Shown: positions 3 through 24,000, counted from the first letter of the stretch. The stretch is 24,000 nucleotides of DNA from Methanococcus aeolicus Nankai-3 (GCF_000017185.1 NC_009635.1:1177189-1201188), one strand, 5' to 3'. Translations and numbers: made by a program. The notes: a model not told the origin generated them from the sequence alone.

Positions 3-269
3 GATATATTAAAAGGATTTATAGAATATCCTAATGAAGATTTAGATAAAATTTTAGAAATAAAAGGATTGAAATCACTTTCAAAAGAGGAAGTTGAAGA
101 AATAATTGAAAATATAATAAATCAAAACATAGAAGTTGTAAATAGTAAAGGTATGGGTGCTATGGGTATGTTGATGGGTAGATGTATGGCGGAGCTCCGA
201 GGTAAAGCCGATGGAAAAATTATAAACACCGTGTTAAAAAATAAATTAATGGAAAAGGCAAATAAATAA
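3..269 (+). CDS. 3' fragment of a GatE/GatB-family aminoacyl-tRNA amidotransferase subunit (YqeY-like C-terminal tail); 5' end lies outside the window
   Basis: Frame 3 is open from the window edge (DILKGFIEYPNEDLDKILEIKGLKSLSKEEVEEII...), so the TTG at 69 in the ORF track is probably internal. The C-terminal MGxLMGxxMxELRGKADGKxxNxxLKxKL pattern is typical of the GatB/GatE tail domain. Stop TAA at 267-269. Confidence 0.6.
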   Translation, partial: DILKGFIEYPNEDLDKILEIKGLKSLSKEEVEEIIENIINQNIEVVNSKGMGAMGMLMGRCMAELRGKADGKIINTVLKNKLMEKANK

Positions 270-300
270 TAAATAATATATTAAACTTAAAAGGGAAAAT

Positions 301-1791
301 ATGAATGAGATATTGGGATATATTATTGGTGAAACCACCAATACAGAATTAAGCTTTTTATCATTGGGTATGCCTGAAATTGGGGGGTATGTCTTAATAA
401 AATATGAGAATAAAAATATACTGGGAATGGTTGAAAGTGTTGTGCAGGGTTGCCCAGTATTTGATGAAGTATTAAGCGTAAATGATTTAATAAAATTAAA
501 AAACCTAGAAAATGAAGATTCCTACTATATTATGGGAAAAATAAAGGTATTGGGAGATATTGAAAATAAAGAAATTCCAAGGGTGCCACCAAAACCAGGA
601 ACAGAAGTATATATTGCCGACGATGATTCATTAAAAAATATGTTTTCAGATGGGCATTTAAAAATAGGCAAATTGATATCAAGAGAGGTTCCCGTATGCC
701 TTGATGTCAATAAATTATGCTCTCGGCACTTGGCAATATTGGCAATTACCGGAATGGGAAAATCAAACACAGTATCGGTGTTATTATCCGAATTAAATAA
801 GTTAAATGGAACCGTTGTAGTTTTTGATGTTCATGGAGAGTATAAAGAAATAAAATCAAACAACAGCAACAACATATTAAATACTCACAATGTCGAACCA
901 CAAATAAATATATTTAATATAAGTAGTAGTGCATTATGTGATTTAGCGGGAGTAGATGCACAGGCCACAAAACAGCGACCATATATTAATAAGGCAATAA
1001 AATCGGTTAAAAAACAATATAAGGAAGTTGATTTCAATTCTGCGGAAGATTATGTAAATTCAATAATATTTGAATTGGAATCATATATTGAGATTAATAA
1101 AAGAGATGCGGAAAGTATTCAAACTGCCATATTTAGATTGGAGGATATGCTTCAATTTAAAAATCACATTATTAGACTACATTATAATCCAATAGAGGAA
1201 ATAAAAGACGGACATATTAACATACTGCCATTAGATGGATTAGATGAAAATGATATGGATATTATTATTTCTTACTTTTCAAAAGAGATTTTAAAGAATA
1301 GAAAAAAATCATTTAGAAATAATGAACCAAAACCTGTATTTTTAATATTTGAGGAGGCACATTTAATAGTGCCACAAAATAGAAATACAAAATCAAAATA
1401 TTATATATCCCGAATAGCTCGGGAAGGTAGAAAATTTGGAGTTGGGATATGTCTTGTATCCCAAAGGCCCAAAACTCTTGACCAGGAATCATTATCCCAA
1501 TGCAACAATTTAATTATATCTAAATTAATAGAACCTTCTGACCAATCCCATGTTCAACATGCCTCTGAGAATTTAAGTGAAGATTTATTAAAACAATTGC
1601 CCAGTTTGAATATTGGAGAGGCTGTGATTATAGGGCCTTGTTTAAAAATTCCTGCAATTGTAAAAATAGATAAATTTGATGGAGAATATAAGGGAGAAGA
1701 TATTGATATTGTAAATATATGGAAGAACAATTATAATAATGAAAATAATGAAAAAAGACTTTATTCAGAAGATATGTATGGAGATTTATAG
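301..1791 (+). CDS. HerA/FtsK-like P-loop ATPase (DUF87 family)
   Basis: 496-aa ORF. Walker A is AITGMGKSNT, Walker B-like is VFLIFEEAHLIVP, followed by AREGRKFGVGICLVSQRP, which is typical of HerA/DUF87 ATPases. AGGGA Shine-Dalgarno-like motif upstream of the ATG at 301. No NurA-like partner in the window. Confidence 0.8.
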   Translation: MNEILGYIIGETTNTELSFLSLGMPEIGGYVLIKYENKNILGMVESVVQGCPVFDEVLSVNDLIKLKNLENEDSYYIMGKIKVLGDIENKEIPRVPPKPGTEVYIADDDSLKNMFSDGHLKIGKLISREVPVCLDVNKLCSRHLAILAITGMGKSNTVSVLLSELNKLNGTVVVFDVHGEYKEIKSNNSNNILNTHNVEPQINIFNISSSALCDLAGVDAQATKQRPYINKAIKSVKKQYKEVDFNSAEDYVNSIIFELESYIEINKRDAESIQTAIFRLEDMLQFKNHIIRLHYNPIEEIKDGHINILPLDGLDENDMDIIISYFSKEILKNRKKSFRNNEPKPVFLIFEEAHLIVPQNRNTKSKYYISRIAREGRKFGVGICLVSQRPKTLDQESLSQCNNLIISKLIEPSDQSHVQHASENLSEDLLKQLPSLNIGEAVIIGPCLKIPAIVKIDKFDGEYKGEDIDIVNIWKNNYNNENNEKRLYSEDMYGDL

Positions 1792-2052
1792 TTAATCTTC
1801 AATAACTGTCCTTTATTTGTCCTATAGTAAAAATTCCCCTGGAATTTTGAGGTCCCCCCGGGATTCAATAATCTCTGATTATTACATATCGTAAAAACTC
1901 CTTCGGAGTTTTGAGAATTATTAAATAAAATCCTTTTAGGATTTTGTACAAAAGCATAGCTTTTGTAAACAAATTTCTTAATTTATTGATAATAGGTTAG
2001 ATTTCAGCTTTTAATCGTAGATGGTTTAGTGAAAAAGACCGAAGATTGACTA
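1789..2052 (+). repeat. Family-1 intergenic element, long form, copy A (TAGT...ACTA ends flanked by TA)
   Basis: About 264 bp, roughly 85% identical by eye to the reverse complement of 3505-3764. Shares termini TAGTnAnnTTCAATAACTGTCC and GTGAAAAAGACCGAAGATTGACTA with copies at 8115 and 13338. Contains five short hairpins: 1830-1848, 1867-1883, 1894-1912, 1927-1945, 1948-1966. Confidence 0.85.
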
Positions 2053-2119
2053 TAGATTAGGAGCTCCTTAAAATAATATAAATAAAAATATAAAAATAGA
2101 GATAACAAAGAATATATAT

Positions 2120-2932
2120 CTATTCCTCTGTTTTTTTGCCCAAATAGGATATATTTATCCGTTTATCATATAATTCTATTTTTAAACCTATTTTAGCAGG
2201 GATTATTTTAACTGATGTATTATCCTTAATATATTCGCACTCCTTAATGGGATTTGTCATTTTAACTCCAATATGATTAATAACTACGAGTTCTGGCTTA
2301 TTTTTCATACTATTTAACAAATCTATTAAATCATTTGAACATAAATGACCTTTTAATTTATTATTTTTTTTCCTAACCACATTTGCCACAAGCACCCTAA
2401 CGCCATCAAAACAGTCTTTTAATGGTTCAATTAATTCGGTATCGCTTGTATATCCAATATCTCCTTTATTAGTTTTTACCCTACATCCAATCCCTTTTGG
2501 GTCTCCATGTTTTGTTGGTGTGGCTATTAATTCAATATCATGTATATTTGCAGACTCTTTTGGGTTTAATATATGAATTTCTGATTTAGATTGGTGATAT
2601 TTGGATATTGCATTTTCATATTTTTCATATCCATTCAATACAGAAATATTACTTATAATATAACCAATATTTTTTGTCATACCATATGTCATTGCCTCTA
2701 TCATAACTTCGGCATCGGTGTAGTGGTCGGGATGGTCATGAGATATAAAAATAGCATTTGTATAATATGGTATTAATTTTAAATCTGCCATCCTTACCAG
2801 AGCTCCGGGACCCGGGTCTATATGTAAATTTGTTTTTTCCGTGTGTATTCTAAATCCTCCTGTCCCCCTATTTTGGGTTATAGTTGCCCATCGTCCCCCG
2901 CCAGCACCTAAAAATATTATCTCAGCGTGCAA
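2120..2932 (-). CDS. MBL-fold metallo-hydrolase
   Basis: 270-aa ORF. HxHxDH-type motif SHDHPDH and an N-terminal IIFLGAGGG strand typical of the metallo-beta-lactamase fold. TTG start at 2932 is preceded by GGGGGTGAT (SD-like) with a 4-nt spacer. Confidence 0.85.
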   Translation of the reverse strand: MHAEIIFLGAGGGRWATITQNRGTGGFRIHTEKTNLHIDPGPGALVRMADLKLIPYYTNAIFISHDHPDHYTDAEVMIEAMTYGMTKNIGYIISNISVLNGYEKYENAISKYHQSKSEIHILNPKESANIHDIELIATPTKHGDPKGIGCRVKTNKGDIGYTSDTELIEPLKDCFDGVRVLVANVVRKKNNKLKGHLCSNDLIDLLNSMKNKPELVVINHIGVKMTNPIKECEYIKDNTSVKIIPAKIGLKIELYDKRINISYLGKKTEE

Positions 2933-3002
2933 ATTATCACCCCCATAATTGTTTATCTTTATTCTAAAATATTAGTATATTTTATATTATTATTTTTATT
3001 AA

Positions 3003-3503
3003 TCATTTAAATACGATATTAACATTATTATATATCCCACTAACCCTAACAACAACATATGGAGAAGTAATTATCATATCGGGGTTATTTGGTTGTGTTT
3101 CATTCATATATATAATCAAATTATTGTTATTATCCTTTATTATTTTTGATATTTTAATTTTATAATCACTACTTGGTTTTTTTCCAGCGTAAATGTATAT
3201 TGTAGTTTTATTATATTTATTATCTGCTATTATACTATATGATGGTTTATCATTACCATGAGTTCCAAATTTAACTATATTATACTCAGCAGACATATTG
3301 ACAGAAATGTTATTCGACATATTATTGATAATAATATTATTTTTATTATTATTGTTTATCGTGTTATTTTTTATGTTGTTGGTATTATTGTGATTATTAT
3401 TGATAGTATTGACTTCATCATTAAAATTATCCAAACAACAGGACAAACTCAGAAATAAAATACATATTATCGTTATTATTTTTAATACCATTATATCCCT
3501 CAT
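3003..3503 (-). CDS. Asn-rich secreted or lipoprotein-like protein of unknown function
   Basis: N-terminal hydrophobic signal with LSLSCC (lipobox-like Cys), an Asn-rich low-complexity linker, then a beta-rich C-terminal domain (weak resemblance to PrcB_C-type domains, low confidence). The ATG at 3491 (preceded by GAGGGA) may be the true start. The ATG at 3503 is formed at the junction with repeat copy B. Confidence 0.65.
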   Translation of the reverse strand: MRDIMVLKIITIICILFLSLSCCLDNFNDEVNTINNNHNNTNNIKNNTINNNNKNNIIINNMSNNISVNMSAEYNIVKFGTHGNDKPSYSIIADNKYNKTTIYIYAGKKPSSDYKIKISKIIKDNNNNLIIYMNETQPNNPDMIITSPYVVVRVSGIYNNVNIVFK

Positions 3504-3504
3504 T

Positions 3505-3764
3505 TAGTCAATCTTCGGTCTTTTTCACTAAACCGCTTATGATTAAGCTAAAATCTAACCTATTATCAATAAATTAAGAAATTTGTTTACAAAATCTTCG
3601 ATTTTGTACAAAATCTCGAAGAGATTTTATTTAATAATTCTCAAAATCGCAAAGCGATTTTTACGATATGCAATAATCAGAGATTATTGAATCTCGGGGG
3701 GACCTCAAAATTCCAGAGGAATTTTTACGATATGGCGGATAAGGGACAGTTATTGAACTTACTA
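3505..3764 (-). repeat. Family-1 intergenic element, long form, copy B (inverted relative to copy A)
   Basis: Reverse complement aligns end to end with 1789-2052. Hairpins at 3589-3607, 3610-3628, 3643-3661, 3672-3688 and 3707-3725. ACTA-TA end at 3761-3766. Lies 3 nt from the uppS stop and directly abuts the ATG at 3503. Confidence 0.85.
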
Positions 3765-3769
3765 TATTT

Positions 3770-4573
3770 TTACTTTCCATATCGTCTTTTTCTCTTTTGA
3801 TAATCCCGAATTGCTCTTAGAAAATCTATTTTTCTAAATTGAGGCCAATACACTTCACAAAAATAAAGTTCTGAATATATGGACTGCCATGTTAAAAAAT
3901 TACTAATTCTCTCCTCGCCCGATGTTCTAATTATTAAATCTGGATTAGGGTGGGGTAAATGTGAAGTATATAGTCGTTCAGATATTGTATTAACAGATAT
4001 ATCCTCAACATTTAATTCATTGTTTTTTATTTTATATGCTATATCTTTTATGGCATCTACAATTTCCTGCTGTCCGCCATAGGCAATTGCAACATTTACA
4101 TAATAATTATTATAGTCTTTTGTTCTTTCTTCTGCATAATCTATTGCTTTCCTAACTCGCTCGGGAAGCAAATCTACTCGCCCTATCGCCTTTATTCTTA
4201 TCTTTTTTTTATGAACCATACTGTCGTCTGCTGTGGCCATAAATTCTTGTTCAAACAAATCCATTAAAAAATCTACTTCTTCCTTAGACCTATTAAAATT
4301 CTCCTGTGAAAAAGAATATAGCGTAATTACTTTTACCCCTAAATTAACACACCAATCTACAAACTCCAAACTTTTTTTAGCACCGATTTTATGGCCAATC
4401 ATGGATTTACTTCCAATTGTCTTAGTCATTCTCCGATTTCCATCCATGATTACTCCGATATGTTTTGGGATATTTTTTTTATCTAACTTTCTTTCAAGCA
4501 TTTTTTCATAATATTTGTAAATTCCCAATTTAGTCATAAAATCGTAAATTTCTACCAACAAATTAATCACCAT
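3770..4573 (-). CDS. uppS: cis-prenyltransferase, undecaprenyl-diphosphate synthase family (archaeal GGPP-specific UppS)
   Basis: 267-aa ORF with the hallmark motifs GVIMDGNRR (N-terminal catalytic Asp) and IRTSGEERISNFLTWQSIYSELYF. Confidence 0.9.
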   Translation of the reverse strand: MVINLLVEIYDFMTKLGIYKYYEKMLERKLDKKNIPKHIGVIMDGNRRMTKTIGSKSMIGHKIGAKKSLEFVDWCVNLGVKVITLYSFSQENFNRSKEEVDFLMDLFEQEFMATADDSMVHKKKIRIKAIGRVDLLPERVRKAIDYAEERTKDYNNYYVNVAIAYGGQQEIVDAIKDIAYKIKNNELNVEDISVNTISERLYTSHLPHPNPDLIIRTSGEERISNFLTWQSIYSELYFCEVYWPQFRKIDFLRAIRDYQKRKRRYGK

Positions 4574-5315
4574 TTAAGAATTTTATGGCATTATAATATC
4601 TTTTCCAATCCCCGCTTCTACTGGTATCTATAAATTTTATATCTTTATCATTTAAAATCACTGCACCATATCCTTCCATCTTACATACTAAACCCAAACA
4701 TCTAAATATTAAATTCCCAGAAATTCCGTCGGGTGCTATTATTATGTTGTATCCGTTTTTTAGGTATTCTTCTATTAATATGCCATTATGGTGTATTATA
4801 ATACCGTCCTCTGTTTCCAATATGTTATCATTTTCACTGTCTTCATTATTGTATATTTTTTTAAAATATTTAATTATATTTTCACATTCATTTAATGAAT
4901 TATCAATTTTCTCACTTCTCCCATAATCCGACAACCTTCCCGCAGATAAAAGCCCGACTTTTGGAACAATATTTTTTGATTTTAAAAAATTTATTGAATA
5001 ATTTATTATATTTATTTTATCTTGAATATTATTAACTTCATCAATTCCCACGGGACATAATAAAAAAATATCATCTGTAAATGGATTTTTTAATATTGAT
5101 GCTCTGTAAAATTCTCCAATTTCTTTTTTTAACAATGGCATAATTTCAGAAGAAGATAATGAACCCCTTATGGCACCATCTACTTCATTATTTATGGTTT
5201 TGTCAAGGAGCTCCCGGGAATCATCCACTAACTGAACATCAATTCCTTCCCACACTAATGCTTGATATGCCTTTAAAATTTCTTTTTTGTTTTCACCGAT
5301 GCCCATTAGATACAT
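4563..5315 (-). CDS. PTA/PlsX-like (phosphate acyltransferase fold) protein; possibly the methanogen-specific 'methanogenesis marker protein 4' family
   Basis: 250-aa ORF. The C-terminal IAPDGISGNLIFR resembles the PDxxxGN motif of phosphate acetyl/butyryl transferases. GGTGAT SD-like motif lies 5 nt upstream of the ATG at 5315. Overlaps uppS by 11 nt. The family name is from memory and was not checked. Confidence 0.7.
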   Translation of the reverse strand: MYLMGIGENKKEILKAYQALVWEGIDVQLVDDSRELLDKTINNEVDGAIRGSLSSSEIMPLLKKEIGEFYRASILKNPFTDDIFLLCPVGIDEVNNIQDKINIINYSINFLKSKNIVPKVGLLSAGRLSDYGRSEKIDNSLNECENIIKYFKKIYNNEDSENDNILETEDGIIIHHNGILIEEYLKNGYNIIIAPDGISGNLIFRCLGLVCKMEGYGAVILNDKDIKFIDTSRSGDWKRYYNAIKFLNGD

Positions 5316-5632
5316 AATTTATCACCAATATTAATATTAAAATTTTGGGAGCTCCTTATCTCAATCATAGAATTAGAATAAACCTTTGAGTTATATGTTT
5401 TCCATGGTTTTAAATTTTTGGCAATATCCACAACTTCATTGTTGTATAAAAAAATTACATCTATGGGATATTTCATAAAAAATGTATGGATATGGAGCTT
5501 TCGTTTGCCATAGTAAAATATAAGCCCCTCATTGTGATTTATATCTTTAAACATTAATCCAAATGCTCGTTTTATAAAATTATCTGCCACATTTAAATTA
5601 TATGTTTTATTATTTAATTGAATTTCTGGCAT
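5306..5632 (-). CDS. DUF192 (COG1430) family protein
   Basis: 108-aa ORF. RAFGLMF...GLIF...IHTFFMKYPIDVIF pattern is typical of DUF192. GGGGGGAGA SD-like motif upstream of the ATG at 5632. Overlaps the downstream gene by 10 nt. Confidence 0.8.
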   Translation of the reverse strand: MPEIQLNNKTYNLNVADNFIKRAFGLMFKDINHNEGLIFYYGKRKLHIHTFFMKYPIDVIFLYNNEVVDIAKNLKPWKTYNSKVYSNSMIEIRSSQNFNINIGDKLCI

Positions 5633-5647
5633 ATTCTCCCCCCGATA

Positions 5648-5758
5648 TGGTGTGTGTTTAAAAAGTCAAATTTCATGGATTTATTAAGTCATAGTAATAT
5701 TCGGTCTTTTTCAGGCCATATATGATAAACTCAAATTTTATGTTATTGAATTAAATTA
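5648..5758 (-). repeat. Composite of degenerate repeat fragments (family-2 left end plus a short family-1 copy)
   Basis: 5646-5672 (TA-TGGTGTGTGTTTAAAAAGTCAAATT) matches the family-2 end at 13452-13480. 5692-5715 (TAGTAATATTCGGTCTTTTTCA) matches the family-1 right end in reverse complement. 5742-5758 (GTTATTGAATTAAATTA) resembles the family-1 left end in reverse complement. Boundaries are approximate. Confidence 0.5.
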
Positions 5759-5793
5759 ATAATAATTTAGAGGTAGTTTGATGTAGTTTATAT

Positions 5794-6615
5794 TTATTTT
5801 ATCTTACCATACGGGGCAGGAACATATTGAACCGATGGTTTTTGACCGGTTGGTTGTTTGTATAAATCAAATAAATCATACATTGTTTTTGGAACATTTG
5901 TATTTACTTTTATGCCCATATCCTTTAACTTATTGATTGTAAGAGGATAATCATGCGTCCATACTCCCGTAGATATCAATTCAGTAATATATTTTGCTTT
6001 TTCTTCACTCATTTTATCTTTTAATAACCAATATACAAACTCCCCCACTTGATTTATTGCTTTTTTTGCTATGTCTCCTAAAATTAATGTTTCGTCTTCC
6101 AATTCATCTACATACTTTGTATCTATAACATTTAATATAGATGCAGCAGGATATTGTCCAATTTGAGGGTCAACCGGCCCCATAACTGCATTTTTATCCA
6201 TTATTATTTCATCTACGGCAAGAGATATTAAACTACCTCCGCTCATGGCATAATGGGGTATTATTACGGTAGTTTTTGCCTTATGTTCTTTTAAAGCCAT
6301 GGCTATTTGCTCACTCGCAAGCACAAGCCCTCCGGGAGTATGAAGTATTAAATCTATGGGGACATCATCAGAAGTCATCCTAATTGCTCGCAGAACTTCT
6401 TCACTATCTTCCATATTTATAAACCGATACAATGGAATACCAAATAAAGCCAATGTTTCCTGCCTATGTATCATTGCGATTACTCTTGTTTTTCTCTCTT
6501 TTTCAAGTTTCTTTATGCAATTATATCTTTGTATTAATTTTAATTTAAACATTAACTGAGGATAAAAGAATAAGAATATGAAAAATATCCAAAAAATATT
6601 ATCTATAGCCAACAT
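5794..6615 (-). CDS. Membrane-anchored Clp-fold serine protease, SDH (serine dehydrogenase proteinase, PF01972-like) family
   Basis: 273-aa ORF. N-terminal hydrophobic helix, then IAMIHRQE...PIDLILHTPGGLV...IPHYAMSGGSLISLAVDEIIMD, characteristic of the SDH/SppA-like ClpP-fold group. GGGTGA SD-like motif 3 nt upstream of the ATG at 6615. Confidence 0.8.
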   Translation of the reverse strand: MLAIDNIFWIFFIFLFFYPQLMFKLKLIQRYNCIKKLEKERKTRVIAMIHRQETLALFGIPLYRFINMEDSEEVLRAIRMTSDDVPIDLILHTPGGLVLASEQIAMALKEHKAKTTVIIPHYAMSGGSLISLAVDEIIMDKNAVMGPVDPQIGQYPAASILNVIDTKYVDELEDETLILGDIAKKAINQVGEFVYWLLKDKMSEEKAKYITELISTGVWTHDYPLTINKLKDMGIKVNTNVPKTMYDLFDLYKQPTGQKPSVQYVPAPYGKIK

Positions 6616-6740
6616 AATTCACCCAAATTTAAATTAATATATTATATGTTCAAGAACTATGGTAAATATTCTTTATGTGTTCCAAAATATTAAGTCATAT
6701 TTCGATATTTTCATAAATTACAATAATATATTTATATAAA

Positions 6741-6834
6741 TAGTCCGAAGATTTACCCCGCACGAAACAATGAAATTTCAAAATTTCCTTTGGAAATTTG
6801 ACTTACAATGAACAACTGTTTCGAACACACCAAC
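6741..6834 (-). repeat. Family-2-like intergenic element with central hairpin
   Basis: Right end GTTTCGAACACACC (6819-6832) is the reverse complement of the GGTGTGTTCGAAA end seen at 13456 and 5648. Left end is TAGTCCGAAGATTTAC. The hairpin AAATTTCC-TTT-GGAAATTT at about 6781-6799 sits next to AAGTCAAATT, as in the copy at 13467. Boundaries are uncertain; the element could extend to the ACTA-TA at 6843-6848. Confidence 0.5.
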
Positions 6835-6844
6835 AATATGATAC

Positions 6845-6904
6845 TATATATACACCATATGATATATACAATATAATATATACAATATAATATATGCTAT
6901 ATAT
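6845..6904. repeat. Degenerate tandem repeat of a 14-bp AT-rich unit (ATATATACAATATA)
   Basis: Two exact units at 6862-6875 and 6876-6889, flanked by diverged copies (ATATATACACCATAT at 6845-6859, ATATATGCTATATA at 6890-6903). Lies in the divergent promoter region between the protease and AAA ATPase genes. Confidence 0.6.
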
Positions 6905-6992
6905 TTATGTTTGTTTATATATAATATAACAATTATCATCTATTGGATATATAATACATTAATATGTGCCAATATTAGCACAGAGGTGCATT

Positions 6993-8111
6993 ATGAGTAG
7001 AATAACACTTAATACGATTAAAATAAAACCAAATATTGCGGAGCTCCAAGATGTTCCAGAGGATATTACTGCTTTGAAGTATGTAATATTAGAACCCATT
7101 GGATTTCCAATTAATATAAATGGCGAGAATCTAAAAGTTAGCGTTGATAATCATGATTTATTTAATGTATATGCGAGAGACCAGTGGGCCAATGAAGTGA
7201 TAAAAGAAGGAGAATATTTATTTGATGGTACTCTTATTCCCGATTATGCATTTAAAGTTATTAATACACACCCCAAAGAAGGCGGACTAATCACGAGAAA
7301 CACATTTTTTAAATTAAAAACCGCGAGAACCCACGATAATAAATTAGTTAAAAATGTTAAATTTGATGAAGTTATAGGGCAAAATGAGGCAAAGAAAAAA
7401 TGCAAAATAATAATGAAATATCTTGAAAATCCAGAAATATTTGGAGAGTGGGCACCCAAAAACATATTATTTTACGGAGCTCCGGGAACTGGAAAAACTT
7501 TGTTAGCAAGAGCTTTGGCAACTGAAACCGATGTTCCATTGTATTTAATTAAAGCAACGGAATTAATAGGTGACCATGTAGGAGATGGCTCAAAACAAAT
7601 CCAAGAATTATATGAAAAAGCATCAAGCAGTAAACCTTGCATCATTTTCATAGATGAAATAGATGCAATAGCTTTAAGCCGACAGTATCAATCATTAAGA
7701 GGGGATGTTTCTGAAATTGTAAATGCCCTACTTACAGAATTAGACGGAATACATGATAATGACGGCATTATTACAATTGCGGCAACAAATAATCCCGATA
7801 TGTTAGATAATGCCATAAGAAGTAGGTTTGAAGAAGAAATTAAATTCGAAGCTCCGAATGATGAAGATAGATTAAAAATCATGAAGCTCTATATGGGTAA
7901 AATACCACTTAACACAAAAAATATTAATTTAAAAAAATATGTGGAAAAAACAAAAGGCATGAGTGGTAGGGACATAAAAGAGAAACTAATAAAACCAGCA
8001 CTCCATAAAGCAATTTTAGAGGACAAAAATTCAATTGAAGAGAAAGATTTAGATATTATATTAAATAAGTTAAAAGGCGGAAAAAAAGAGCCTTTACATT
8101 TATATGCGTAA
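6993..8111 (+). CDS. Single-domain AAA+ ATPase (MJ1494-like '26S protease regulatory subunit homolog'; not PAN)
   Basis: Walker A GAPGTGKTLLARA, Walker B IIFIDEIDA, and second region of homology ATNNPDMLDNAIRSRF. The ORF opens at GTG 6966, but ATG 6993 is preceded by GAGGTG with a 4-nt spacer, so 6993 is preferred. Confidence 0.9.
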   Translation: MSRITLNTIKIKPNIAELQDVPEDITALKYVILEPIGFPININGENLKVSVDNHDLFNVYARDQWANEVIKEGEYLFDGTLIPDYAFKVINTHPKEGGLITRNTFFKLKTARTHDNKLVKNVKFDEVIGQNEAKKKCKIIMKYLENPEIFGEWAPKNILFYGAPGTGKTLLARALATETDVPLYLIKATELIGDHVGDGSKQIQELYEKASSSKPCIIFIDEIDAIALSRQYQSLRGDVSEIVNALLTELDGIHDNDGIITIAATNNPDMLDNAIRSRFEEEIKFEAPNDEDRLKIMKLYMGKIPLNTKNINLKKYVEKTKGMSGRDIKEKLIKPALHKAILEDKNSIEEKDLDIILNKLKGGKKEPLHLYA

Positions 8112-8114
8112 ATA

Positions 8115-8242
8115 TGGTAAGTTCAATAACTGTTCCTTATTCGTTCTAAATTAGAACGCATATTTACTATTCATTTTTAGTAATATAATACGGATTTTGG
8201 CTTTAATTAGGCATATTTATGAAAACGACCGATGATTGACTA
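8115..8242 (+). repeat. Family-1 intergenic element, short form, copy C
   Basis: TA-TGGTAAGTTCAATAACTGTTCCTTAT at the left and ATGAAAACGACCGATGATTGACTA-TA at the right. The interior is unrelated to copies A/B but contains the hairpin CGTTCTA-AAT-TAGAACG. Lies between the convergent AAA ATPase and polC genes. Confidence 0.7.
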
Positions 8243-8273
8243 TAAATAAAAAATTATTATATTTTATATTTTA

Positions 8274-13271
<4,998 letters not shown>

Positions 13272-13337
13272 ATATTCACCAAATATATATTTAAAAATAG
13301 TATAGATTATATGATATTAATAATTTTAGGTATATTA

Positions 13338-13451: not shown

Positions 13452-13453
13452 TA

Positions 13454-13618
13454 TAGTGTGTTCGAAAAGTCAAATTCTTACAGAATTTGAGTTATAATCC
13501 TTCGGATTTTATTCAATTCGTTCTCTATCATCCTATGCTATCTTGCTGTATTTAATATAATATAACAAAATGATAAGGAACATAGAATATATGATGTAAA
13601 GAGTTCTCGAACATACTA
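13454..13618. repeat. Family-2 element with 17-nt terminal inverted repeats
   Basis: Including the TA flanks, the left end TATAGTGTGTTCGAAAA (13452-13468) and the right end TTCTCGAACATACTATA (13604-13620; reverse complement TATAGTATGTTCGAGAA) match at 15 of 17 positions. The core annotated here excludes the TA flanks. Internal hairpins are CAAATTCT-TAC-AGAATTTG and AATCC-TTC-GGATT. Shares the TA at 13452-13453 with copy D. Confidence 0.7.
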
Positions 13619-13669
13619 TAAAAAAACCATATAATTAATTATACAAATATGATTGTTTAAAAAAATAAT

Positions 13670-13912
13670 GGCATGAGACCTATAGCCCGCCTTCTGTAAT
13701 TTCGGCGACATTCGGCTAAGCACAATACTGCTTGCACCCATGTGGGGTAGTCTCGTTTCACTGGATTCTCGGAGCTCCTCAAATTATATCATTGTCATCT
13801 GCTTCGAGGCCATATCGTTTCTATACACTGAAACCCAGCCCTTCTCAGGACATTGCACATATTGTGGGTGGGCGGAGCTTCCTCCTATAAGGAGTCGCCA
13901 GTTCTCTTGCCA
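13670..13912 (-). ncRNA. rnpB: RNase P RNA, archaeal type M (Methanococcales type)
   Basis: The minus-strand RNA carries CR-I-like GGAGGAAGCUCCGCCCACC and CR-V-like UUACAGAAGGCGGGCUAU. P4 pairs CCGCCC with GGCGGG, P2 pairs GGCGAC with GUCGCC, and P1 pairs GGCAAGAGA with UCUCAUGCC. A short P3 hairpin is CUCC-UUAU-AGGAG. The gene is followed by a U7 run. Ends are accurate to a few nt. Confidence 0.85.
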
Positions 13913-14071
13913 TCAATATAATCATATTACAATATTTTATTAGTATATATTATGTTATCGGTTTAACGAATACTATGAGAATACATATAACACTCGAAAA
14001 CCCGAAAAGCTAAATCATAATAAAAACTAAACATAAATTAAAAGTTAAACCATAATAAAAATCGTATATTT

Positions 14072-18985: not shown

Positions 18986-19017
18986 GGTCGTTATCAAGTA
19001 TCACTTGGTTATGGGCT
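18986..19017 (-). other. 5' half of the 16S rRNA processing helix (pairs with 17405-17436)
   Basis: See the partner feature. It lies in the leader between the putative promoter region (AT-rich, TTTATAT on the minus strand at 19119-19125) and the 16S 5' end. Confidence 0.6.
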
Positions 19018-19204
19018 TACATCAAACTTGAACTATTTCTTATCTTCAAGCTATCACATTTGCATAATATGCTGGTGGTTTGTGTATTGTATTGTTTTTA
19101 GGTTGGAAACAATAATAAATATAAACATAAATATTCAATAACCACTACTAATTGCCAGATATTCGACTAAGACAATACGATAAAAAAATATTAAAAAAGT
19201 AATA

Positions 19205-20230
19205 TTATTGTTTTTTTTGTTTTTTGGCAAGATTTTCCAAACTATCAAGTTGTTCTTTTGTTCCAAATGCATATAATATATCATCTGAATCCAGAACAAT
19301 ATCTGCCGGAGGATTTGTTATTAAATTATTTTCTTTCTTAATTCCAATAATTGTAGCACCACTTTTTTGTCGGATATTTGTATTTAATATTGTATTATTG
19401 TGGAGCTCCGAGCCATCTTCAACTATTATTTTTCGTATCTCTAAATCTTCATCATATTCATATTTTGCTATGGACATAAATGTTGAAACAAAATCTAATA
19501 TTCCTGGCTTTACTGCCAATTCAGCCATTCTTAAACCGCCAATTACATAAGGAGAAACAACTTTATCTGCCCCTGCAATAAGAAGTTTATCCATAGCAAC
19601 TTGCTCATCTGCCTTTGCTACAATATATAAATCAGGATTTATTCTTCTTGATGATAATACAATATATACATTATCAGAATCATTTGAAACTGATGAAATA
19701 AGTCCTTTTGCATCATTTATTTTTGCATTATATAATATTTCATCATGAGTGGCATCGCCTACAATATATTTAAAATTAGGATTATTTGATAGTTCGTTCT
19801 CCAATGTATCTATATTATTATCTATCACGACATATTCAATCCCTTCTTTTTCAAATTTATCTACAACAACCCTTCCACTTTTACCATATCCACATATAAT
19901 ATAATGATTTTTTAATTTACTTATTTTTTTATCCATAATTTTCAACTGCTTTGTTTTTTGAAAATAACCCCCAATAAAAAAGTCGGCAAAATTACCGAGA
20001 GTATATAATCCAATACTAACACCTAATAGAACATATATTGCAGTAATAATCTTACCGTTCGAAGTTATTGGAACAAAATCCCCAAAACCAACCGTTGTAA
20101 TTGTGGTTATTGAATAATATATGGCGTCCAATGTATTTAATCCTTCAAAATATGCCATAAGCCCAGCATATGCCATTATTAAACTAAACATTACAAATAT
20201 ACTTATTTTTATTTTATCAACAACATCCAT
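19205..20230 (-). CDS. MthK-like potassium channel (2-TM pore plus RCK/TrkA-N and TrkA-C domains)
   Basis: 341-aa ORF. Selectivity filter TTVGFGD lies between two hydrophobic helices. A Rossmann-type motif IICGYGKSGR is followed by a TrkA-C-like C-terminal domain. Confidence 0.9.
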   Translation of the reverse strand: MDVVDKIKISIFVMFSLIMAYAGLMAYFEGLNTLDAIYYSITTITTVGFGDFVPITSNGKIITAIYVLLGVSIGLYTLGNFADFFIGGYFQKTKQLKIMDKKISKLKNHYIICGYGKSGRVVVDKFEKEGIEYVVIDNNIDTLENELSNNPNFKYIVGDATHDEILYNAKINDAKGLISSVSNDSDNVYIVLSSRRINPDLYIVAKADEQVAMDKLLIAGADKVVSPYVIGGLRMAELAVKPGILDFVSTFMSIAKYEYDEDLEIRKIIVEDGSELHNNTILNTNIRQKSGATIIGIKKENNLITNPPADIVLDSDDILYAFGTKEQLDSLENLAKKQKKQ

Positions 20231-20372
20231 ATAACCACAAATATACTATTAATCTGATATCAATTATATTATTATGCCATACACCAGAGACATTTATCAA
20301 CATTATATTAGATATATTATAAAATATAAATGACCTATATAATATATAATTTATCTATATGAACAGTTGCAA

Positions 20373-21878
20373 ATGCTGAAAAATACCGCGGGCGATATAA
20401 TGGAAATCGGGATATTAGATATAAAAGGAGCTCTACCCTGTTTTGAAAATTTCGGAAATTTACCTACAAAAATAATTGATGAAAATAATGTAAAAATAAT
20501 TAATGACCTTGATATGCTTATAATGCCGGGGGGTAGTTTAGTTGAAAGTGGTTCATTAACAGATGATTTAAAAAAACAAATTATAGAATTTGACAATATT
20601 ATTTTAGGAATATGTAGTGGATTCCAAATACTGTGTGAAAAAATAGATATTGGTAGAAAAAGTCCTGTCCCAATAGTAAAAGAGGGATTAAATTTATTGG
20701 GAGTAGAATTTTCGCCCTTGATATGCACCGATAGAGTAAAATTTAACATAGTTGAAAGCGAAATATTTGAAAATAATAGCGGAACTGGTTTTCATTGCCA
20801 TACATACGGAGATATAAAAATTACAAATAAAAAAACAAAACCATTAACATACTCCTCAATCCAAAAATTGAACTATAAAATGACTGGAGGTAAAGATATA
20901 TTATCAGGAGTATATTGTAATAACATAATTGGAACAATGGTACATAACTTTTTAGATAATAAAAATATACGAGAAAATTTATTTAATTATTTAAAAATAG
21001 ATGAAATAGAACAAAATAACATATTTAAAAAAAATAAAGAAATAAAAAATAAATTAAAGGCAAAATCAATAATATATAATAACAAATATAAAAATGAAAA
21101 TAATAATAACAAAAATACTAATGATAATAAAAACCTAAACAGTAAAAAAGGACTAATATTACTGGCAACTGGCTCAGATAGTGGAAAAACATTTTTAATC
21201 ACCAGCATTGTGTCAAAGCTAAATAAAAAAACATTTGTTGCAAAAATAGGTCCTGATGTGCGAGATATTGTTCCATCACTATATATATTGAGAGAAGAAA
21301 TGACAAAATACAACAGCATAAAAATTGCAGATAGAGGATGGTGTGAAGTTGAGGAATTTATGAACTTTGTAAATAATTCAGACTATGAATATTATATTAT
21401 AGAGGGCGTAATGGGGGCTTTCACAGGAGCATTAAATAAAAAAAATTATAGCGGTGCCGAAATCTCGAAAACATTGGGAGCTCCCACATATATTGTATCG
21501 GCATGTAATAAAAGTGGCATAGAAGGAGCATTTGTAGAAAGTTTGGCATATTATTCATTATTAAAAGAAATGGGTGTAAATGTAAAAGGAATGATATTAA
21601 ATAAAATATATAATTTTGAAATATTTGAAAAAGTAAAAGAAATAGGAGAAAATATAGGATTAGAAGTTATCGGCGTTGGAAAAGCCATACAGAATAAAAG
21701 GGGACTTATGCCAGAAGTTGAAATAGACTATGAAGAATTTTGTAAAAATGCAAATAATATAACTATGGATATAAATATTCCAAAATTGAACATAAATGGA
21801 CATAATAATAGTAATAATAGCAATACTCAAAATTATGATTTTAAACATTATTTAGAAAAATGGAGTAAAAAAATATAA
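20373..21878 (+). CDS. Two-domain CobB/CobQ-like protein with swapped domain order: N-terminal GATase3-type glutamine amidotransferase, C-terminal dethiobiotin-synthetase-like P-loop domain
   Basis: N-terminal LIMPGG...[11 protein letters not shown] (nucleophile Cys) and GFHCHTYG (His). An Asn/Lys-rich linker follows. C-terminal [13 protein letters not shown] (P-loop) and YYIIEGVMG. The start is ambiguous (TTG 20367, ATG 20373, ATG 20400), with no clear SD motif. Confidence 0.8.
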
Positions 21879-21969
21879 CATTGAAAAAATTTAATAAAAT
21901 ATTATTGTAATTAGGGGACTCCCATAAAACAACAGTAGTTAAAACATATAATATAATTTAAGGGATAAT

Positions 21970-24000
21970 ATGGACAACAACAAAATTGAAGAATTAAAAC
22001 CATATATTGTTGCCTATCTTAAAAATATGCATCAAGACGATATAGTATTTGAAAATGAAAATATAACGGTAGATTTAGATAAACTATATAATTATGGAGT
22101 GGTAGATTTTATAGAATATTTGATAAATAACCCTCCCGAGGGCATAGAAATATTGGCGGAATGCTATAAGGAGGCCTATTTTGCACTGAAAACAGAACAA
22201 CCTGCTTATACGACTCACATATATATTAAAAATATTCCAAATATATTTAAAACATATAAAAATAAAAAATTAACCATTAAAGATATTAAAAGTAGCACAA
22301 TAGGTAAGTTAATAGAATTTGAAGGAATTATAGTATTGGCAACAAAAATAAAGTCAATATTAAAAAAAGCAGTATATCAATGTTCAAGTTGTGGCAATCC
22401 TCCAATATCATTAGATATTGACAACCCCTATGAATTTAATTATGATTCAAAAACCTGTAAAAAATGTAATGGAATAATGAAATTAATAGAAGGAGAATCA
22501 GAATATGCCGATTTTCAAGAACTAAAAATTCAACAGCCCCTTGATTTAATGGATGACCCAGAGGAACCCCCAAAATACATAACTGTATTTTTGGAAAATT
22601 CAAAGGGAATATATTGCGGAAGAGTAAATGTAATAGGAATACCCATAAAATACCAAAGTAGCAAAAAATTACCAATATATGACATCTGTGTTAAAGGAAT
22701 AAGTTGTGAATTGATAGAAAATCAGATGGAAAATAAGGTAAATGAAGAAGATATTGAAAAAATAGAAAAAGTGGCAACTCATCCAGACATAATAAATATT
22801 CTATCAAATGAATTAATTCCTGAGATAAAAGGATATGAAACCATAAAAAAGGCAATATTTTTACAGCAAATAAAGGGAGTTAAAAAAGGAAATAAAAGAG
22901 CAGACAGCCATATATTATTAATCACAGACCCAGGAATTGGAAAAAGTGTTATGTTAAGAAAAATTGCGGAGCTCCCTGGGAATGTATATGGTTCTGTAAC
23001 TACTGCATCGGGTGTAGGTTTAACGGCCGCAGTAGTTAGGGAAAGAACTGAAATAGGAGACGATACATGGGTAATCAAACCAGGATTATTGGTAAAGGCC
23101 AATTTAGGAACTGCCTGTATTGATGAGCTAACTGTCAATAGAGACCTTCAAAGTTTTGTTTTAGAAGCAATGGAATCCCAAACAATCCACATCAACAAAG
23201 GAGGAATAAACACAAAATTACCTGCGGAATGTGCCATTATTGCAGCATGTAATCCAAGATGGGGAAAATTTGACCCAAATGTATCCATACCTGAACAGAT
23301 TAACATACCTGCCCCCATGTTGAGTAGGTTTGATATTATATTTCCAATAAAAGATGAAGTAAATAGAACAAAGGATAAAGAAATAGCCCAACACATAATA
23401 GGAATACATAAAAAATATTTAGAGGAAGATCAAAATACCAATAAACGAAAAAATAAAGTTGTAATAAATGACATAGAATTAACAGAAGAATTTATTTTAA
23501 AATATATAATATATGCCAGGGGAAAACAGCCAATAATATCAAAAGAAGCCGAAGACATGTTGGTAGAATATTATATAGACATGCGAAAAAGCTCCATGCA
23601 AATCACGGCACGACAATTGGAGGCCACAATAAGAATAGCCGAAGCACATGCAAAAGCAAAATTAAAGGATGTTGTAGAAAAAGAAGATGCGCAAGAAGCC
23701 ATAAGAATAATAAACGAAGCCTTAAAAGAAATTGCCTATGACCCAGAAACTGGAATGATTGATGTAGGAAAAATAACTGGACAATCTACAAAGGAAACCG
23801 ACAAAATGAAAGAAATATATAACATCATTAAAAAAATATCTGAAAAAACTGAAAAAGAATTGGTATTAAGTGAGGACATCATGGAAGAAGCGGAAAAAAT
23901 AGGGATAAAAGAAGAAACAGAGGTAGAAAATATACTTAAAAAATTAAAAATAAAAGGAGAAATTGACGAACCAAGAAATGGAAAATATAGAATAATATAA
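21970..24000 (+). CDS. mcm: MCM replicative helicase
   Basis: 676-aa ORF. C4 zinc motif CSSCGN...CKKCNG, Walker A DPGIGKS, Walker B ACIDE, sensor-1 AACNP, Arg finger SRFD, sensor-2 ARQLEATIRIAEAHAK, and a C-terminal winged-helix-like tail. Stop TAA at 23998-24000. Confidence 0.95.
   Translation: MDNNKIEELKPYIVAYLKNMHQDDIVFENENITVDLDKLYNYGVVDFIEYLINNPPEGIEILAECYKEAYFALKTEQPAYTTHIYIKNIPNIFKTYKNKKLTIKDIKSSTIGKLIEFEGIIVLATKIKSILKKAVYQCSSCGNPPISLDIDNPYEFNYDSKTCKKCNGIMKLIEGESEYADFQELKIQQPLDLMDDPEEPPKYITVFLENSKGIYCGRVNVIGIPIKYQSSKKLPIYDICVKGISCELIENQMENKVNEEDIEKIEKVATHPDIINILSNELIPEIKGYETIKKAIFLQQIKGVKKGNKRADSHILLITDPGIGKSVMLRKIAELPGNVYGSVTTASGVGLTAAVVRERTEIGDDTWVIKPGLLVKANLGTACIDELTVNRDLQSFVLEAMESQTIHINKGGINTKLPAECAIIAACNPRWGKFDPNVSIPEQINIPAPMLSRFDIIFPIKDEVNRTKDKEIAQHIIGIHKKYLEEDQNTNKRKNKVVINDIELTEEFILKYIIYARGKQPIISKEAEDMLVEYYIDMRKSSMQITARQLEATIRIAEAHAKAKLKDVVEKEDAQEAIRIINEALKEIAYDPETGMIDVGKITGQSTKETDKMKEIYNIIKKISEKTEKELVLSEDIMEEAEKIGIKEETEVENILKKLKIKGEIDEPRNGKYRII

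Follow-up and report, generated by a model that had tools for sequence, protein, structure and literature searches.

The 24-kb window of Methanococcus aeolicus Nankai-3 DNA analyzed here raises the question of why one palindromic octamer, GGAGCTCC, recurs throughout it. An exact count gave 14 copies of GGAGCTCC and 18 of its core, GAGCTC, and the 14 octamers and four further core sites listed in a preliminary description of this DNA were all found where it had placed them. The sites are given below with the corresponding sequences in relatives (labeled L004, L012, L015, L019, L020 and L021).

191..198, GGAGCTCC: 3′ end of a GatB/GatE-type gene, encoding Ala-Glu-Leu-Arg
2060..2067, GGAGCTCC: spacer between the convergent HerA and MBL-fold genes, 53 nt beyond the MBL stop codon
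2799..2806, AGAGCTCC: MBL-fold gene, encoding Gly-Ala-Leu; identical in L012 and L004
5207..5214, GGAGCTCC: gene for a 250-aa unknown protein, Glu-Leu; CGAGCTCC in L012, TAATTC in L019
5348..5355, GGAGCTCC: DUF192 gene, Ser-Ser; GAACTT in L019
7040..7047, GGAGCTCC: PRS2-type AAA ATPase gene, Ala-Glu-Leu-Gln versus Gln-Asn-Leu-Gln in relatives
7476..7483, GGAGCTCC: Walker A of the PRS2 AAA ATPase, GAPGTGKT versus GPPG in six relatives
10055..10062, GGAGCTCC: intein-coding part of the gene for DP2, the large subunit of DNA polymerase D; TGAGCTCC in L012, TGAGTTCC in L004
10088..10095, AGAGCTCC: DP2 intein; identical in L012 and L004
10822..10829, GGAGCTCC: DP2 catalytic region, Gly-Ala-Pro; the same octamer in L021 and L020 by parallel change
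11099..11106, GGAGCTCC: DP2, Glu-Leu; GAGCTC core also in L012 and L004, not in L019, L021 or outgroups
11134..11141, GGAGCTCC: DP2, Gly-Ala-Pro; TGAGCTCC in L012, GAAGCTCC in L019, GGAGCTCC in L021 and L020
12532..12539, AGAGCTCC: DP2 N-terminal domain; AGAGCTCC in every motif-bearing lineage; GTGCTC, GGGCCC, GAGCCC or GAGCAC at this position in motif-free lineages
13771..13778, GGAGCTCC: within RNase P RNA (gene 13671-13910, minus strand)
19402..19409, GGAGCTCC: TrkA-type K+ channel gene, Ser-Glu-Leu-His; not in L012 or L015
20427..20434, GGAGCTCT: CobQ-like amidotransferase gene; GGTTCATT in L012
21477..21484, GGAGCTCC: CobQ-like gene, Gly-Ala-Pro; Gly-Phe-Pro in L012 and M. maripaludis
22968..22975, GGAGCTCC: MCM helicase gene, Glu-Leu; also GGAGCTCC in L012, GAAATTCC in Methanocaldococcus

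The assignment of the octamers to eight protein genes, on both coding strands and in all three phases, was correct, and translation agreed with the reading of seven sites as Glu-Leu, four as Gly-Ala-Pro and one as Ser-Ser; the single sites in the spacer (2060) and in RNase P RNA (13771) were likewise verified.

The very large excess claimed for the motif was upheld by every null model applied to the window. Dinucleotide shuffles gave an expectation of 0.08 GGAGCTCC (maximum, 1) and 1.47 GAGCTC (maximum, 6), compared with 14 and 18 observed, and Markov models of order 0 to 3 on the non-rRNA DNA predicted 0.025 to 0.49 octamers. In the synonymous-codon shuffle (2,000 rounds), all proteins were kept, as was the pooled codon usage, in which the motif's own codons are counted from the start, and the coding DNA was expected to hold 0.37 GGAGCTCC (at most 3 in 2,000) and 0.92 GAGCTC, while 12 and 16 were observed; codon and dipeptide usage thus failed to explain the excess. 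Within the coding sequences, 8 of the 14 CTC leucine codons fall inside the motif. Noncoding DNA and the RNA gene, making up about 13% of the non-rRNA DNA of the window, carry 2 of the 14 octamers, which is roughly proportional, and the rRNA operon was confirmed to contain none, with about 3 expected at the density outside it (Poisson P = 0.04).

A further 10 kb of Nankai-3 DNA contained five GGAGCTCC, one GGAGCTCT and one TGAGCTCC. The resulting same-strain sample of approximately 29 kb of non-rRNA DNA holds 19 GGAGCTCC, corresponding to 655 per Mb with a fairly even spacing of about 1 per 1.5 kb, and the observed/expected ratio (O/E) in this sample was 29, 158 and about 300 under models of order 3, 2 and 1, respectively. 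The motif was also present at full density in strain PL15/Hp, where 13.9 kb contained 10 GAGCTC sites, 8 of them being GGAGCTCC.

All 18 GAGCTC sites of the window match RGAGCTCY, as departures from the octamer are restricted to the outer positions: AGAGCTCC occurs three times (2799, 10088 and 12532) and GGAGCTCT once (20427). In the 29 kb of Nankai-3 DNA, 24 of the 25 GAGCTC sites match RGAGCTCY, with a strong preference for G/C at the ends, and 19 are perfect octamers. One-mismatch variants of GGAGCTCC were found at positions 1/8 (n = 6) and 2/7 (n = 2) and never at positions 3 to 6, while the flanks showed a weak symmetric pyrimidine bias (YY at −4/−3) and no strong extended consensus. The only strain polymorphism within a site switches between C and T, both of which are permitted outer bases. 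Ends of the R...Y form are typical of Type II recognition sequences.

Alignment with orthologous positions in relatives revealed that the sites were made by point substitution, never by insertion, and are mostly lineage-specific replacements instead of words encoded by conserved peptides, the two outcomes between which the preliminary description had proposed to decide. Near-cognate proto-sites are converted whatever the DNA encodes, and the direction of change is strong enough to override conserved amino acids and to break a base pair in an RNase P helix. Moreover, separate lineages convert identical positions independently. At 7476, the Walker A sequence GPPG became GAPG in Nankai-3 and, independently, in L021. 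At 10822, the change from Gly-Asn-Pro to Gly-Ala-Pro in DP2 needs three substitutions and arose separately in Nankai-3 and in L021 and L020; GGATTNCC is retained here by closer relatives of Nankai-3, and most other aligned relatives have Gly-Asn-Pro, with one Gly-Asn-Ser (L012 was compared codon by codon). In the RNase P RNA, where relatives have GGAGUUUC, the GGAG half of the site falls in a linker, and its CUCC half makes up the initial four bases of the 3′ arm of a helix; of the two U>C changes, one has a compensating partner, and the second results in an A·C mismatch in the helix. GAGCTC sites were identical in L012 in 8 of 15 cases, compared with 18% for other GC-rich hexamers (P = 0.002), but sites shared with L012 need not be inherited, since parallel gains were demonstrated.

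By 16S rRNA and DP2, Nankai-3 adjoins genomes labeled Methanothermococcus, not M. maripaludis; the tree of lineages was built from a single protein by neighbor joining. Among these close relatives the trait turns on, turns off or alters its form between hexamer and octamer. The sister lineage L019 (97.3% 16S identity) has one GAGCTC in 13 kb and no GGAGCTCC, while two other clades are GAGCTC enriched, mostly without a preference for outer G/C. In L012, L004 and L021, there were 33, 19 and 14 GAGCTC sites versus 2.0, 1.3 and 1.5 expected, respectively, with no strong outer-base rule, and one of the enriched clades independently acquired GGAGCTCC at three Nankai-3 positions. The motif was not found in the syntenic 14 to 23 kb of M. 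maripaludis, M. voltae and M. vannielii, and it was likewise absent from the Methanofervidicoccus and Methanocaldococcus sequences compared.

These properties bear on the class of element to which the motif belongs. The likeness to cyanobacterial HIP1 (GCGATCGC) suggested in the preliminary description held for each feature tested. As with HIP1 and the alternate cyanobacterial HIPs, GGAGCTCC is a GC-rich palindromic octamer with nested 4-, 6- and 8-base palindromes, and it is spread over genes in all frames and on both strands as well as over noncoding DNA. Its density of about 650 per Mb and its O/E of tens to hundreds compare with 300 to 2,700 per Mb and 55 to 228 for HIP1, and its deviations fall mostly at the first and last bases, matching the outer-base bias of HIP1 (Elhai 2015, PMC4390886). 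A further point in common is that related lineages lack the motif or carry another form instead; site identity with a relative is also above that of other GC-rich hexamers, as for HIP1, but with parallel gains such sites need not be inherited. On the other hand, the host is an archaeon and the sequence differs, the family having so far been described from cyanobacteria; HIP1 is near universal across its phylum, whereas the M. aeolicus motif is on or off at 97% 16S identity; and the form is GAGCTC in sister clades and the octamer in M. aeolicus. We class GGAGCTCC, or more strictly RGAGCTCY, as the HIP-type "highly iterated palindrome" of M. aeolicus, a signature at the level of the DNA itself with no coding, RNA or regulatory role. 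A literature search yielded no published description, in agreement with the earlier statement that no equivalent was known in Methanococcales; this is apparently an undescribed HIP-like element in an archaeon.

A second reading offered earlier, that of a DNA uptake sequence, is without direct support; the motif is missing from the syntenic regions of the three Methanococcus species above. Of these, M. maripaludis is the species with demonstrated natural transformation (PMC10133366), and no uptake sequence for archaeal transformation, including that of M. maripaludis, has been reported in the literature. The motif resembles the USS of Haemophilus and the DUS of Neisseria in density (0.65 per kb in the 29 kb versus about 1 per kb), in its location within genes at tolerant positions, in lineage-specific dialects with a common core, and in accumulation by point substitution, which for USS/DUS is believed to be due to molecular drive. 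It differs in being a perfect 8-nt palindrome with a weak flank bias, whereas USS/DUS are 9 to 12 nt long, asymmetric and orientation dependent, and DUS often form inverted pairs in terminators, unlike the M. aeolicus motif; in addition, competence and biased uptake are demonstrated for USS/DUS but would be hypothetical for M. aeolicus, and the transformable M. maripaludis lacks the motif. Two other repeat classes were rejected: a dispersed mobile repeat (REP/MITE-like), because the orthologous alignments showed substitutions only and no shared flanks, and an oriented motif of the Chi/KOPS type, because a palindrome can have no orientation.

The preliminary description also suggested looking for a GAGCTC-specific or orphan methyltransferase (MTase) and for methylation by SMRT or nanopore sequencing. 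An SMRT methylome is already available in the literature for M. aeolicus PL15/Hp; it comprises CTAG, GTNAC, GCACY and CGAG plus an inferred ACGT, and all five MTase genes found were assigned to these five motifs, although M.MaeIII had at first been overlooked by annotation. No GAGCTC or AGCT methylation or MTase is listed there, SMRT being blind to m5C; for HIP1, by contrast, DmtA and DmtC are the methylating enzymes. In the 24-kb Nankai-3 window, no MTase domain is encoded. The interpretation in the preliminary description was thus partly supported: the excess and the HIP1 likeness hold, and the uptake reading has no direct backing. In Escherichia coli, CCWGG and related words are overrepresented via very-short-patch (VSP) repair, so a sequence-specific repair system can enrich its own recognition word; however, that effect is below about 2-fold, compared with at least 30-fold in M. 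aeolicus, and no VSP signature was seen here, since GAGTTC/GAACTC, including the predicted deamination product GAGTTC, are not depleted.

Short palindromes of the same genome are under the reverse pressure, with 0 ACGT versus 19 expected, 1 GATC versus 53, 4 CTAG versus 30 and 5 GTNAC versus 27. Three of these words are restriction targets in Methanococcales (MaeI, CTAG; MaeII, ACGT; MaeIII, GTNAC; PMC10113651). Site avoidance of this kind shares with our motif the short palindromic target, the strong lineage-specific pressure and the patchiness among relatives, but its targets are depleted while GGAGCTCC is enriched 30- to 300-fold; a restriction target under avoidance was rejected, the recognition word being enriched 15- to 300-fold instead of depleted.

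We consider that the motif is most likely due to molecular drive, which is supported by the codon-independent enrichment, the substitution-only origin, the costly and parallel changes, the patchy distribution and the degeneracy confined to the outer bases. The elevated site identity with L012, the opposite pressure on related palindromes in sister lineages and the HIP1 precedent add to this. The drive would be a biased conversion toward the site, in which site-carrying alleles would be preferentially transmitted or fixed, and the agent would be a lineage-specific, probably horizontally mobile protein recognizing the duplex palindrome. Against drive of any kind, the recognition factor is a postulate, and the sample comprises 29 kb of Nankai-3 and 14 kb of PL15/Hp DNA. 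Possibly, site-bearing DNA is favored in DNA exchange or recombinational repair, by analogy with the process established for USS/DUS and now proposed for HIP1, which itself enhances natural transformation; known uptake sequences are not palindromic, though, and M. maripaludis is transformable yet motif free. We rank this above Elhai's HIP model, in which a Type II-like MTase or repair pair would bias mismatch correction toward the site. This second version is somewhat less likely: the PL15/Hp methylome lists no GAGCTC in a strain with the motif at full density, which weakens a methyltransferase model that only m5C or an undetected enzyme could rescue, and the VSP signature is missing.

Direct selection for protein binding could leave a similar substitution pattern. 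In that case, GGAGCTCC would be bound by some abundant protein of the chromosome that acts, for example, in nucleoid organization, segregation or condensin loading, replication or repair, and about 1,000 copies would be retained, each adding to chromosome function. A palindrome suits a dimeric DNA-binding protein, and the even spacing, the elevated identity with L012, the symmetric flank bias and the chromosome-structure roles put forward for HIP1 (Xu et al. 2018, PMC5861425) point the same way. We nevertheless regard this as unlikely: the motif is missing from the sister lineage and most Methanococcales, and such patchiness makes a core chromosomal function improbable, except where the protein that binds the motif is accessory too; the sites follow no positional logic relative to genes, being proportional to length in coding and noncoding DNA, and no candidate protein is known. 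Still less probable is a relic, with sites slowly decaying after the loss of a GAGCTC- or RGAGCTCY-specific system (e.g., an MTase and coupled repair) of the M. aeolicus ancestor. The PL15/Hp inventory without a matching MTase or methylation would fit, L019 shows that a lineage can be wholly motif free, and restriction-modification genes are readily gained and lost (PL15/Hp, for instance, has MaeIII and Nankai-3 does not). However, the motif is very clean in its proportions of perfect octamers (19/25) and RGAGCTCY matches (24/25), with no inner-position variants, which speaks for current or very recent maintenance, and the sole in-site polymorphism alternates permitted bases. Practically no weight is left for the view that the motif follows from biased codon usage, dipeptide usage or composition, from conserved peptides, from chance or from the insertion of a small mobile repeat. 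Although most sites encode common dipeptides (Glu-Leu and Gly-Ala), this was refuted by the protein-preserving shuffle (0.37 versus 12) and the ortholog alignments, in which other residues are mostly encoded at these positions and neither indels nor a strong extended consensus appear; the spacer and the RNA gene carry sites too.

Returning to molecular drive, we tentatively propose a HIP-class element that works without site methylation, in which a horizontally mobile factor with sequence specificity might drive gene conversion to RGAGCTCY chromosome-wide; its origin could lie in a Type II enzyme or in a DNA-exchange component. Such a drive would be powerful enough for separate lineages to have conserved residues of catalytic motifs replaced in parallel, and it would be gained, lost and retuned from hexamer to octamer inside a genus-level clade. 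If so, hyperabundant palindromes would occur in prokaryotes generally and have a mobile genetic cause, and the Methanothermococcus/M. aeolicus clade would offer a natural on/off system for finding it. Pressure in the opposite direction was observed as well: AGCT is depleted in the sister lineages L003, L010, L011 and L018, as is GAGCTC in Methanocaldococcus.

The palindromic octamer GGAGCTCC occurred 14 times and its hexamer core GAGCTC 18 times in the window, exactly where a preliminary description had placed them. In dinucleotide-preserving shuffles of the window, the expected octamer count was 0.08 (at most 1) and the expected hexamer count 1.47 (at most 6). With the rRNA operon excluded, Markov models of order 0 to 3 predicted 0.025 to 0.49 octamers in the remaining 19 kb; models of order higher than 3 were uninformative, since they were trained on the motif itself. 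GAGCTC was the sole strongly over-represented 6-base palindrome, with an observed/expected ratio of 15 versus 2.3 or less for all others. When synonymous codons were shuffled without altering any of the 13 proteins or the pooled codon usage, the very large excess claimed at the outset persisted: coding DNA contained 12 octamers versus 0.37 after shuffling (maximum, 3 in 2,000 shuffles) and 16 hexamers versus 0.92. This protein-preserving shuffle and the ortholog comparison described below ruled out a codon or dipeptide artefact. The motif accounted for eight of the window's 14 CTC leucine codons.

The window carries the following genes and RNAs.

Genes for the GatB/E C-terminus, HerA, an MBL-fold protein, a PrcB-domain protein and UPP synthase
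Genes for a 250-aa protein of unknown function, a DUF192 protein and an SDH-type protease
6966-8111, gene for a PRS2-type AAA ATPase
8274-13271, gene for DP2 (the large subunit of DNA polymerase D) with a LAGLIDADG intein at about residues 927-1415
13671-13910, minus strand, RNase P RNA
5S-23S-tRNA(Ala)-16S operon
Genes for a TrkA-type channel, a CobQ-like amidotransferase and MCM

HerA and MCM were matched by exact sequence to ABR56710.1 and ABR56721.1, respectively, both on the 1,569,500-bp replicon, and no methyltransferase was found among the 13 ORFs of the window. The phases, strands and amino acids originally assigned to the octamers were right, with seven encoding Glu-Leu, four Gly-Ala-Pro and one Ser-Ser in eight genes, and the two non-protein copies indeed lay in the HerA/MBL spacer and in RNase P RNA. 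The rRNA operon, noted before as free of the octamer, contained 0 copies versus ~3 expected at the density outside (P = 0.04). Spacing of the octamers in the window looked irregular, from 35 to 3,147 nt with the rRNA gap set aside. Two motif sites (10055 and 10088) lie within the DP2 intein, which is patchy among relatives and missing in, e.g., M. maripaludis, M. vannielii and L019, the locus of a sister lineage.

All 18 window sites fitted the relaxed form RGAGCTCY, 14 as GG..CC and the other 4 as AG..CC or its equivalent, GG..CT; position 1 was never a pyrimidine. One-mismatch variants of the octamer in the pooled Nankai-3 DNA were concentrated at its ends, with six at positions 1/8 (five A and one T), two at positions 2/7 and none at positions 3 to 6. 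The same deviation pattern is known for HIP1, the highly iterated palindrome of cyanobacteria (Elhai, PMC4390886). The statement that no extended consensus surrounds the sites stood insofar as no strong flanking consensus was found, but it missed a weak pyrimidine (YY) excess at -4/-3, where pyrimidines occupied 22 to 23 of 28 half-sites versus ~55% upstream of generic GGAG.

Enrichment extended beyond the window. Using Logan and NCBI contigs, we added 2.2 kb of Nankai-3 DNA upstream (L001) and 7.8 kb downstream (L038), which contributed five copies of GGAGCTCC and one each of GGAGCTCT and TGAGCTCC. The octamer occurred 19 times in the pooled 29 kb of non-rRNA Nankai-3 DNA (655 per Mb), where 24 of the 25 GAGCTC sites matched RGAGCTCY. 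In 13.9 kb of a second strain, PL15/Hp (CP104873), 8 of 10 GAGCTC sites were GGAGCTCC. Altogether, ~43 kb of M. aeolicus and 5 to 24 kb per relative were sampled. Beyond the right end of the window, positions 2593-3297 of L038 hold 23 of the ~47 SNPs separating Nankai-type from PL15/Hp-type sequence within 700 nt, a divergence of 3.3%, while the remainder is far less divergent (99.3 to 99.5% identity overall). This single block starts at a motif site that is polymorphic between the strains (GGAGCTCT versus GGAGCTCC) and also coincides with the start of a 374-aa gene without a Pfam match; recombination or rapid evolution of the gene might account for the block.

Syntenic loci were then collected from Methanothermococcus-labelled genomes and MAGs, Methanocaldococcus and metagenome contigs by a scan with the DP2 N-terminal region; those of M. 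maripaludis C5, M. vannielii SB, M. voltae and Methanofervidicoccus A16 came from look-ups by protein.

GAGCTC counts in non-rRNA DNA of relatives, observed versus expected under an order-2 model
L012 (Methanothermococcus sp. Ax23): 33 versus 2.0
L004: 19 versus 1.3
L021: 14 versus 1.5
L020: 4 versus 0.6
L019: 1 versus 0.5
L003, L010, L011 (Methanothermococcus MAGs/SAGs): 0 versus 0.3-0.7
M. maripaludis, M. vannielii, M. voltae: 1, 0, 0 versus ~0.5
Methanofervidicoccus: 1 versus 1.5
Methanocaldococcus (L007, L009, L013 pooled): 4 versus ~17.5

In a neighbour-joining tree built from one protein, DP2, M. aeolicus paired with the unenriched L019 (16S identity, 97.3%), L012 and L004 formed the next clade (~96% 16S identity), and L021 and L020 branched outside these four. 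The tree and the counts taken together thus indicated that the trait is patchy at the genus scale. In the sister clades, the outer G/C preference is mostly missing around the hexamer core: just 13 of 34 sites in L012 fitted RGAGCTCY, so M. aeolicus follows the outer G/C rule far more strictly (P = 1.5e-9), and L021 and L020 were intermediate (8 of 14 and 4 of 7 sites). Methanocaldococcus showed the reverse of the M. aeolicus trend, with GAGCTC under-represented in its loci.

When every site was aligned base by base with the orthologous position, substitutions were the only changes seen, with no indels at the aligned sites, and insertion of a small mobile repeat was ruled out by this and by the lack of shared flanks. 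The GAGCTC core was common to M. aeolicus and L012 at 8 of 15 alignable sites, while other GC-rich hexamers were identical between the two at only 18% of positions (P = 0.002). With ancestral states judged by eye from the alignments, three of the L012-shared sites had gained a G in M. aeolicus from a flanking C or T, and the remaining sites were M. aeolicus specific, each needing 1 to 4 changes. Many of the site-making changes were non-synonymous. In the Walker A motif of PRS2 (window 7476-7499), GPPGTGKT became GAPGTGKT, a Pro-to-Ala change that is present solely because of the octamer; GPPG was found in all six compared PRS2 orthologs without the motif, and the same change arose independently in L021. 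Similarly, Gly-Asn-Pro became Gly-Ala-Pro in DP2, Gly-Phe-Pro became Gly-Ala-Pro in the CobQ-like protein, and Gln-Asn-Leu-Gln became Ala-Glu-Leu-Gln in PRS2.

In the distant motif-bearing clade of L021 and L020, GGAGCTCC was found again at M. aeolicus positions 10822 and 11134, and at 7476 in L021 alone; at 12532 this clade had AGAGCTCC. Intervening lineages were unconverted at 7476 (GGNCCNCC) and 10822 (GGATTNCC), and L019, L004 and the outgroups at 11134. As read from these alignments, the same proto-sites were converted in parallel in L021/L020 and in M. aeolicus.

In RNase P RNA, relatives have GGAGUUUC where M. aeolicus has GGAGCUCC. The last four bases of the motif contribute the 3′ arm of a helix in which relatives have Watson-Crick pairs throughout; of the two U-to-C changes, one is compensated (A-U to G-C) and the other yields an A.C mismatch. 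Overall, this helix has two non-Watson-Crick pairs in M. aeolicus (A.C and C.A) and is perfectly paired in L012 and L004, and compensatory changes were seen at two further pairs. The aligned substitutions show a directional pressure acting on the DNA sequence as such. Its ability to override protein and RNA constraints shows in the Walker A Pro-to-Ala change, the DP2 Asn-to-Ala change and the unpaired RNase P base, and this bears on how substitutions in these genomes are read.

At the sequence level, the M. aeolicus octamer has every defining property of HIP elements, but its host is an archaeon rather than a cyanobacterium, and the evidence on methylation leans negative, with SMRT blind to m5C. 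Because the octamer is a palindrome, it does not have the form of an uptake sequence (USS/DUS), and neither a restriction-avoidance target, a mobile repeat nor an oriented Chi/KOPS-type word fits it. No description of GGAGCTCC or GAGCTC over-representation in Methanococcales or archaea was found in the searchable literature; the initial remark that no equivalent had been described was borne out also by the HIP papers, an archaeal R-M review and the M. aeolicus methylome paper. Neither Methanococcus nor Methanothermococcus is covered by Blow et al. 2016, which also lists no GAGCTC methyltransferase from archaea.

We consider it probable that molecular drive with a putative agent lies behind the RGAGCTCY enrichment. 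Such a drive would fix changes that are at best neutral for conserved proteins and an RNA helix, would follow no positional logic relative to genes, would recur at identical proto-sites in separate lineages and would be dispensable to a sister lineage, and it is favoured on these grounds. Direct selection of the octamer as a chromosomal protein-binding site seems improbable to us, and we give even less credence to its being the relic of a lost system.

The drive might take either of two forms. USS and DUS are the other precedent for such densities, reached through uptake or recombination bias. By this analogy, an uptake or recombination bias is a tentative candidate to which we give slightly more weight than to one based on methylation. 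Two recent preprints tie HIP1 to natural transformation; against a bias of this kind, no uptake sequence has been reported for archaeal transformation, and M. maripaludis lacks any such motif. The other form, a methyltransferase coupled to methyl-directed repair as Elhai proposed for HIP (PMC4390886), agrees with the nested 4/6/8 palindrome, the R...Y ends and the patchiness, but we regard it as rather unlikely. The SMRT methylome of PL15/Hp comprises five motifs (m4C CTAG, m6A GTNAC, m6A GCACY, m6A CGAG and m5C ACGT, the last inferred and not detected), to which all five methyltransferase genes found were assigned, and this strain has the motif at full density despite a methylome without GAGCTC. 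A methylation-based drive would be rescued only by m5C, invisible to SMRT, or by an unrecognised enzyme; M.MaeIII itself was initially overlooked in PL15/Hp. The simple VSP prediction of this form, GAGTTC depletion, was not borne out, as no depletion of GAGTTC/GAACTC or AAGCTC/GAGCTT was seen in the window, L012 and L004, where counts are small.

Several other short words were strongly avoided in the same DNA.

Short palindromes in non-rRNA DNA of the window (1-13999 and 19001-24000), observed versus expected
ACGT: 0 versus 19
GATC: 1 versus 53
CTAG: 4 versus 30
GTNAC: 5 versus 27
GTAC: 5 versus 24

CTAG, ACGT and GTNAC correspond to MaeI, MaeII and MaeIII of M. aeolicus (PMC10113651). For GATC and GTAC, the published methylome of PL15/Hp offers no counterpart, and Nankai-3, reported to be without MaeIII, nevertheless avoids GTNAC. 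Depletion of GATCTC merely reflects the general GATC avoidance. AGCT, the inner palindrome of the motif, was strongly depleted in L003, L010 and L011 (4 to 5 per 12 to 18 kb versus 8 to 17 expected) and in Methanofervidicoccus A16 (L018; 5 versus 23), which suggests an AluI-type restriction pressure in lineages adjoining the GAGCTC-enriched ones. With AGCT depleted in these neighbours and GAGCTC enriched here, pressure on related palindromes differs in sign between lineages, as is expected of accessory sequence-specific enzymes. GNGCNC words, which differ from GAGCTC at positions 2/5 (GGGCTC, GTGCTC, GCGCTC and complements), were scarce in the window, L012 and L004 (3 versus ~16.5 expected) and not in L003, L010 and L011 (17 versus ~10.7); preferred proto-sites may already have been converted.

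The origin and function of HIP1, studied in cyanobacteria only, have been open for ~30 years, and since nearly all cyanobacterial lineages have both the motif and methylases, cause and effect are hard to separate there. The archaeal element brings natural contrasts, namely a motif-free sister, clades with mainly the hexamer core, parallel gains and a methylome without the motif. Given these, the gene or genes responsible could be named by phylogenetic profiling of a few dozen small genomes. SacI sites at about every 1.2 kb, and any factor reading them, also bear on genetic tools for M. aeolicus.

The convergent HerA/MBL spacer (1830-1968) additionally contains four successive short stem-loops, each with an A-rich stem, a 3- to 4-nt loop and a T-rich stem.

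1830-1848, stem-loop 1, AAAATTCC/GGAATTTT
1894-1913, stem-loop 2, AAAACTCC/GGAGTTTT
1928-1946, stem-loop 3, AAAATCC/GGATTTT
1948-1966, stem-loop 4, ACAAAAGC/GCTTTTGT

Terminators and a dispersed hairpin repeat are two possible readings. Both HerA-bearing Logan contigs stop at window ~1814, right before the stem-loops, which suggests that the genome holds further copies of the unit.
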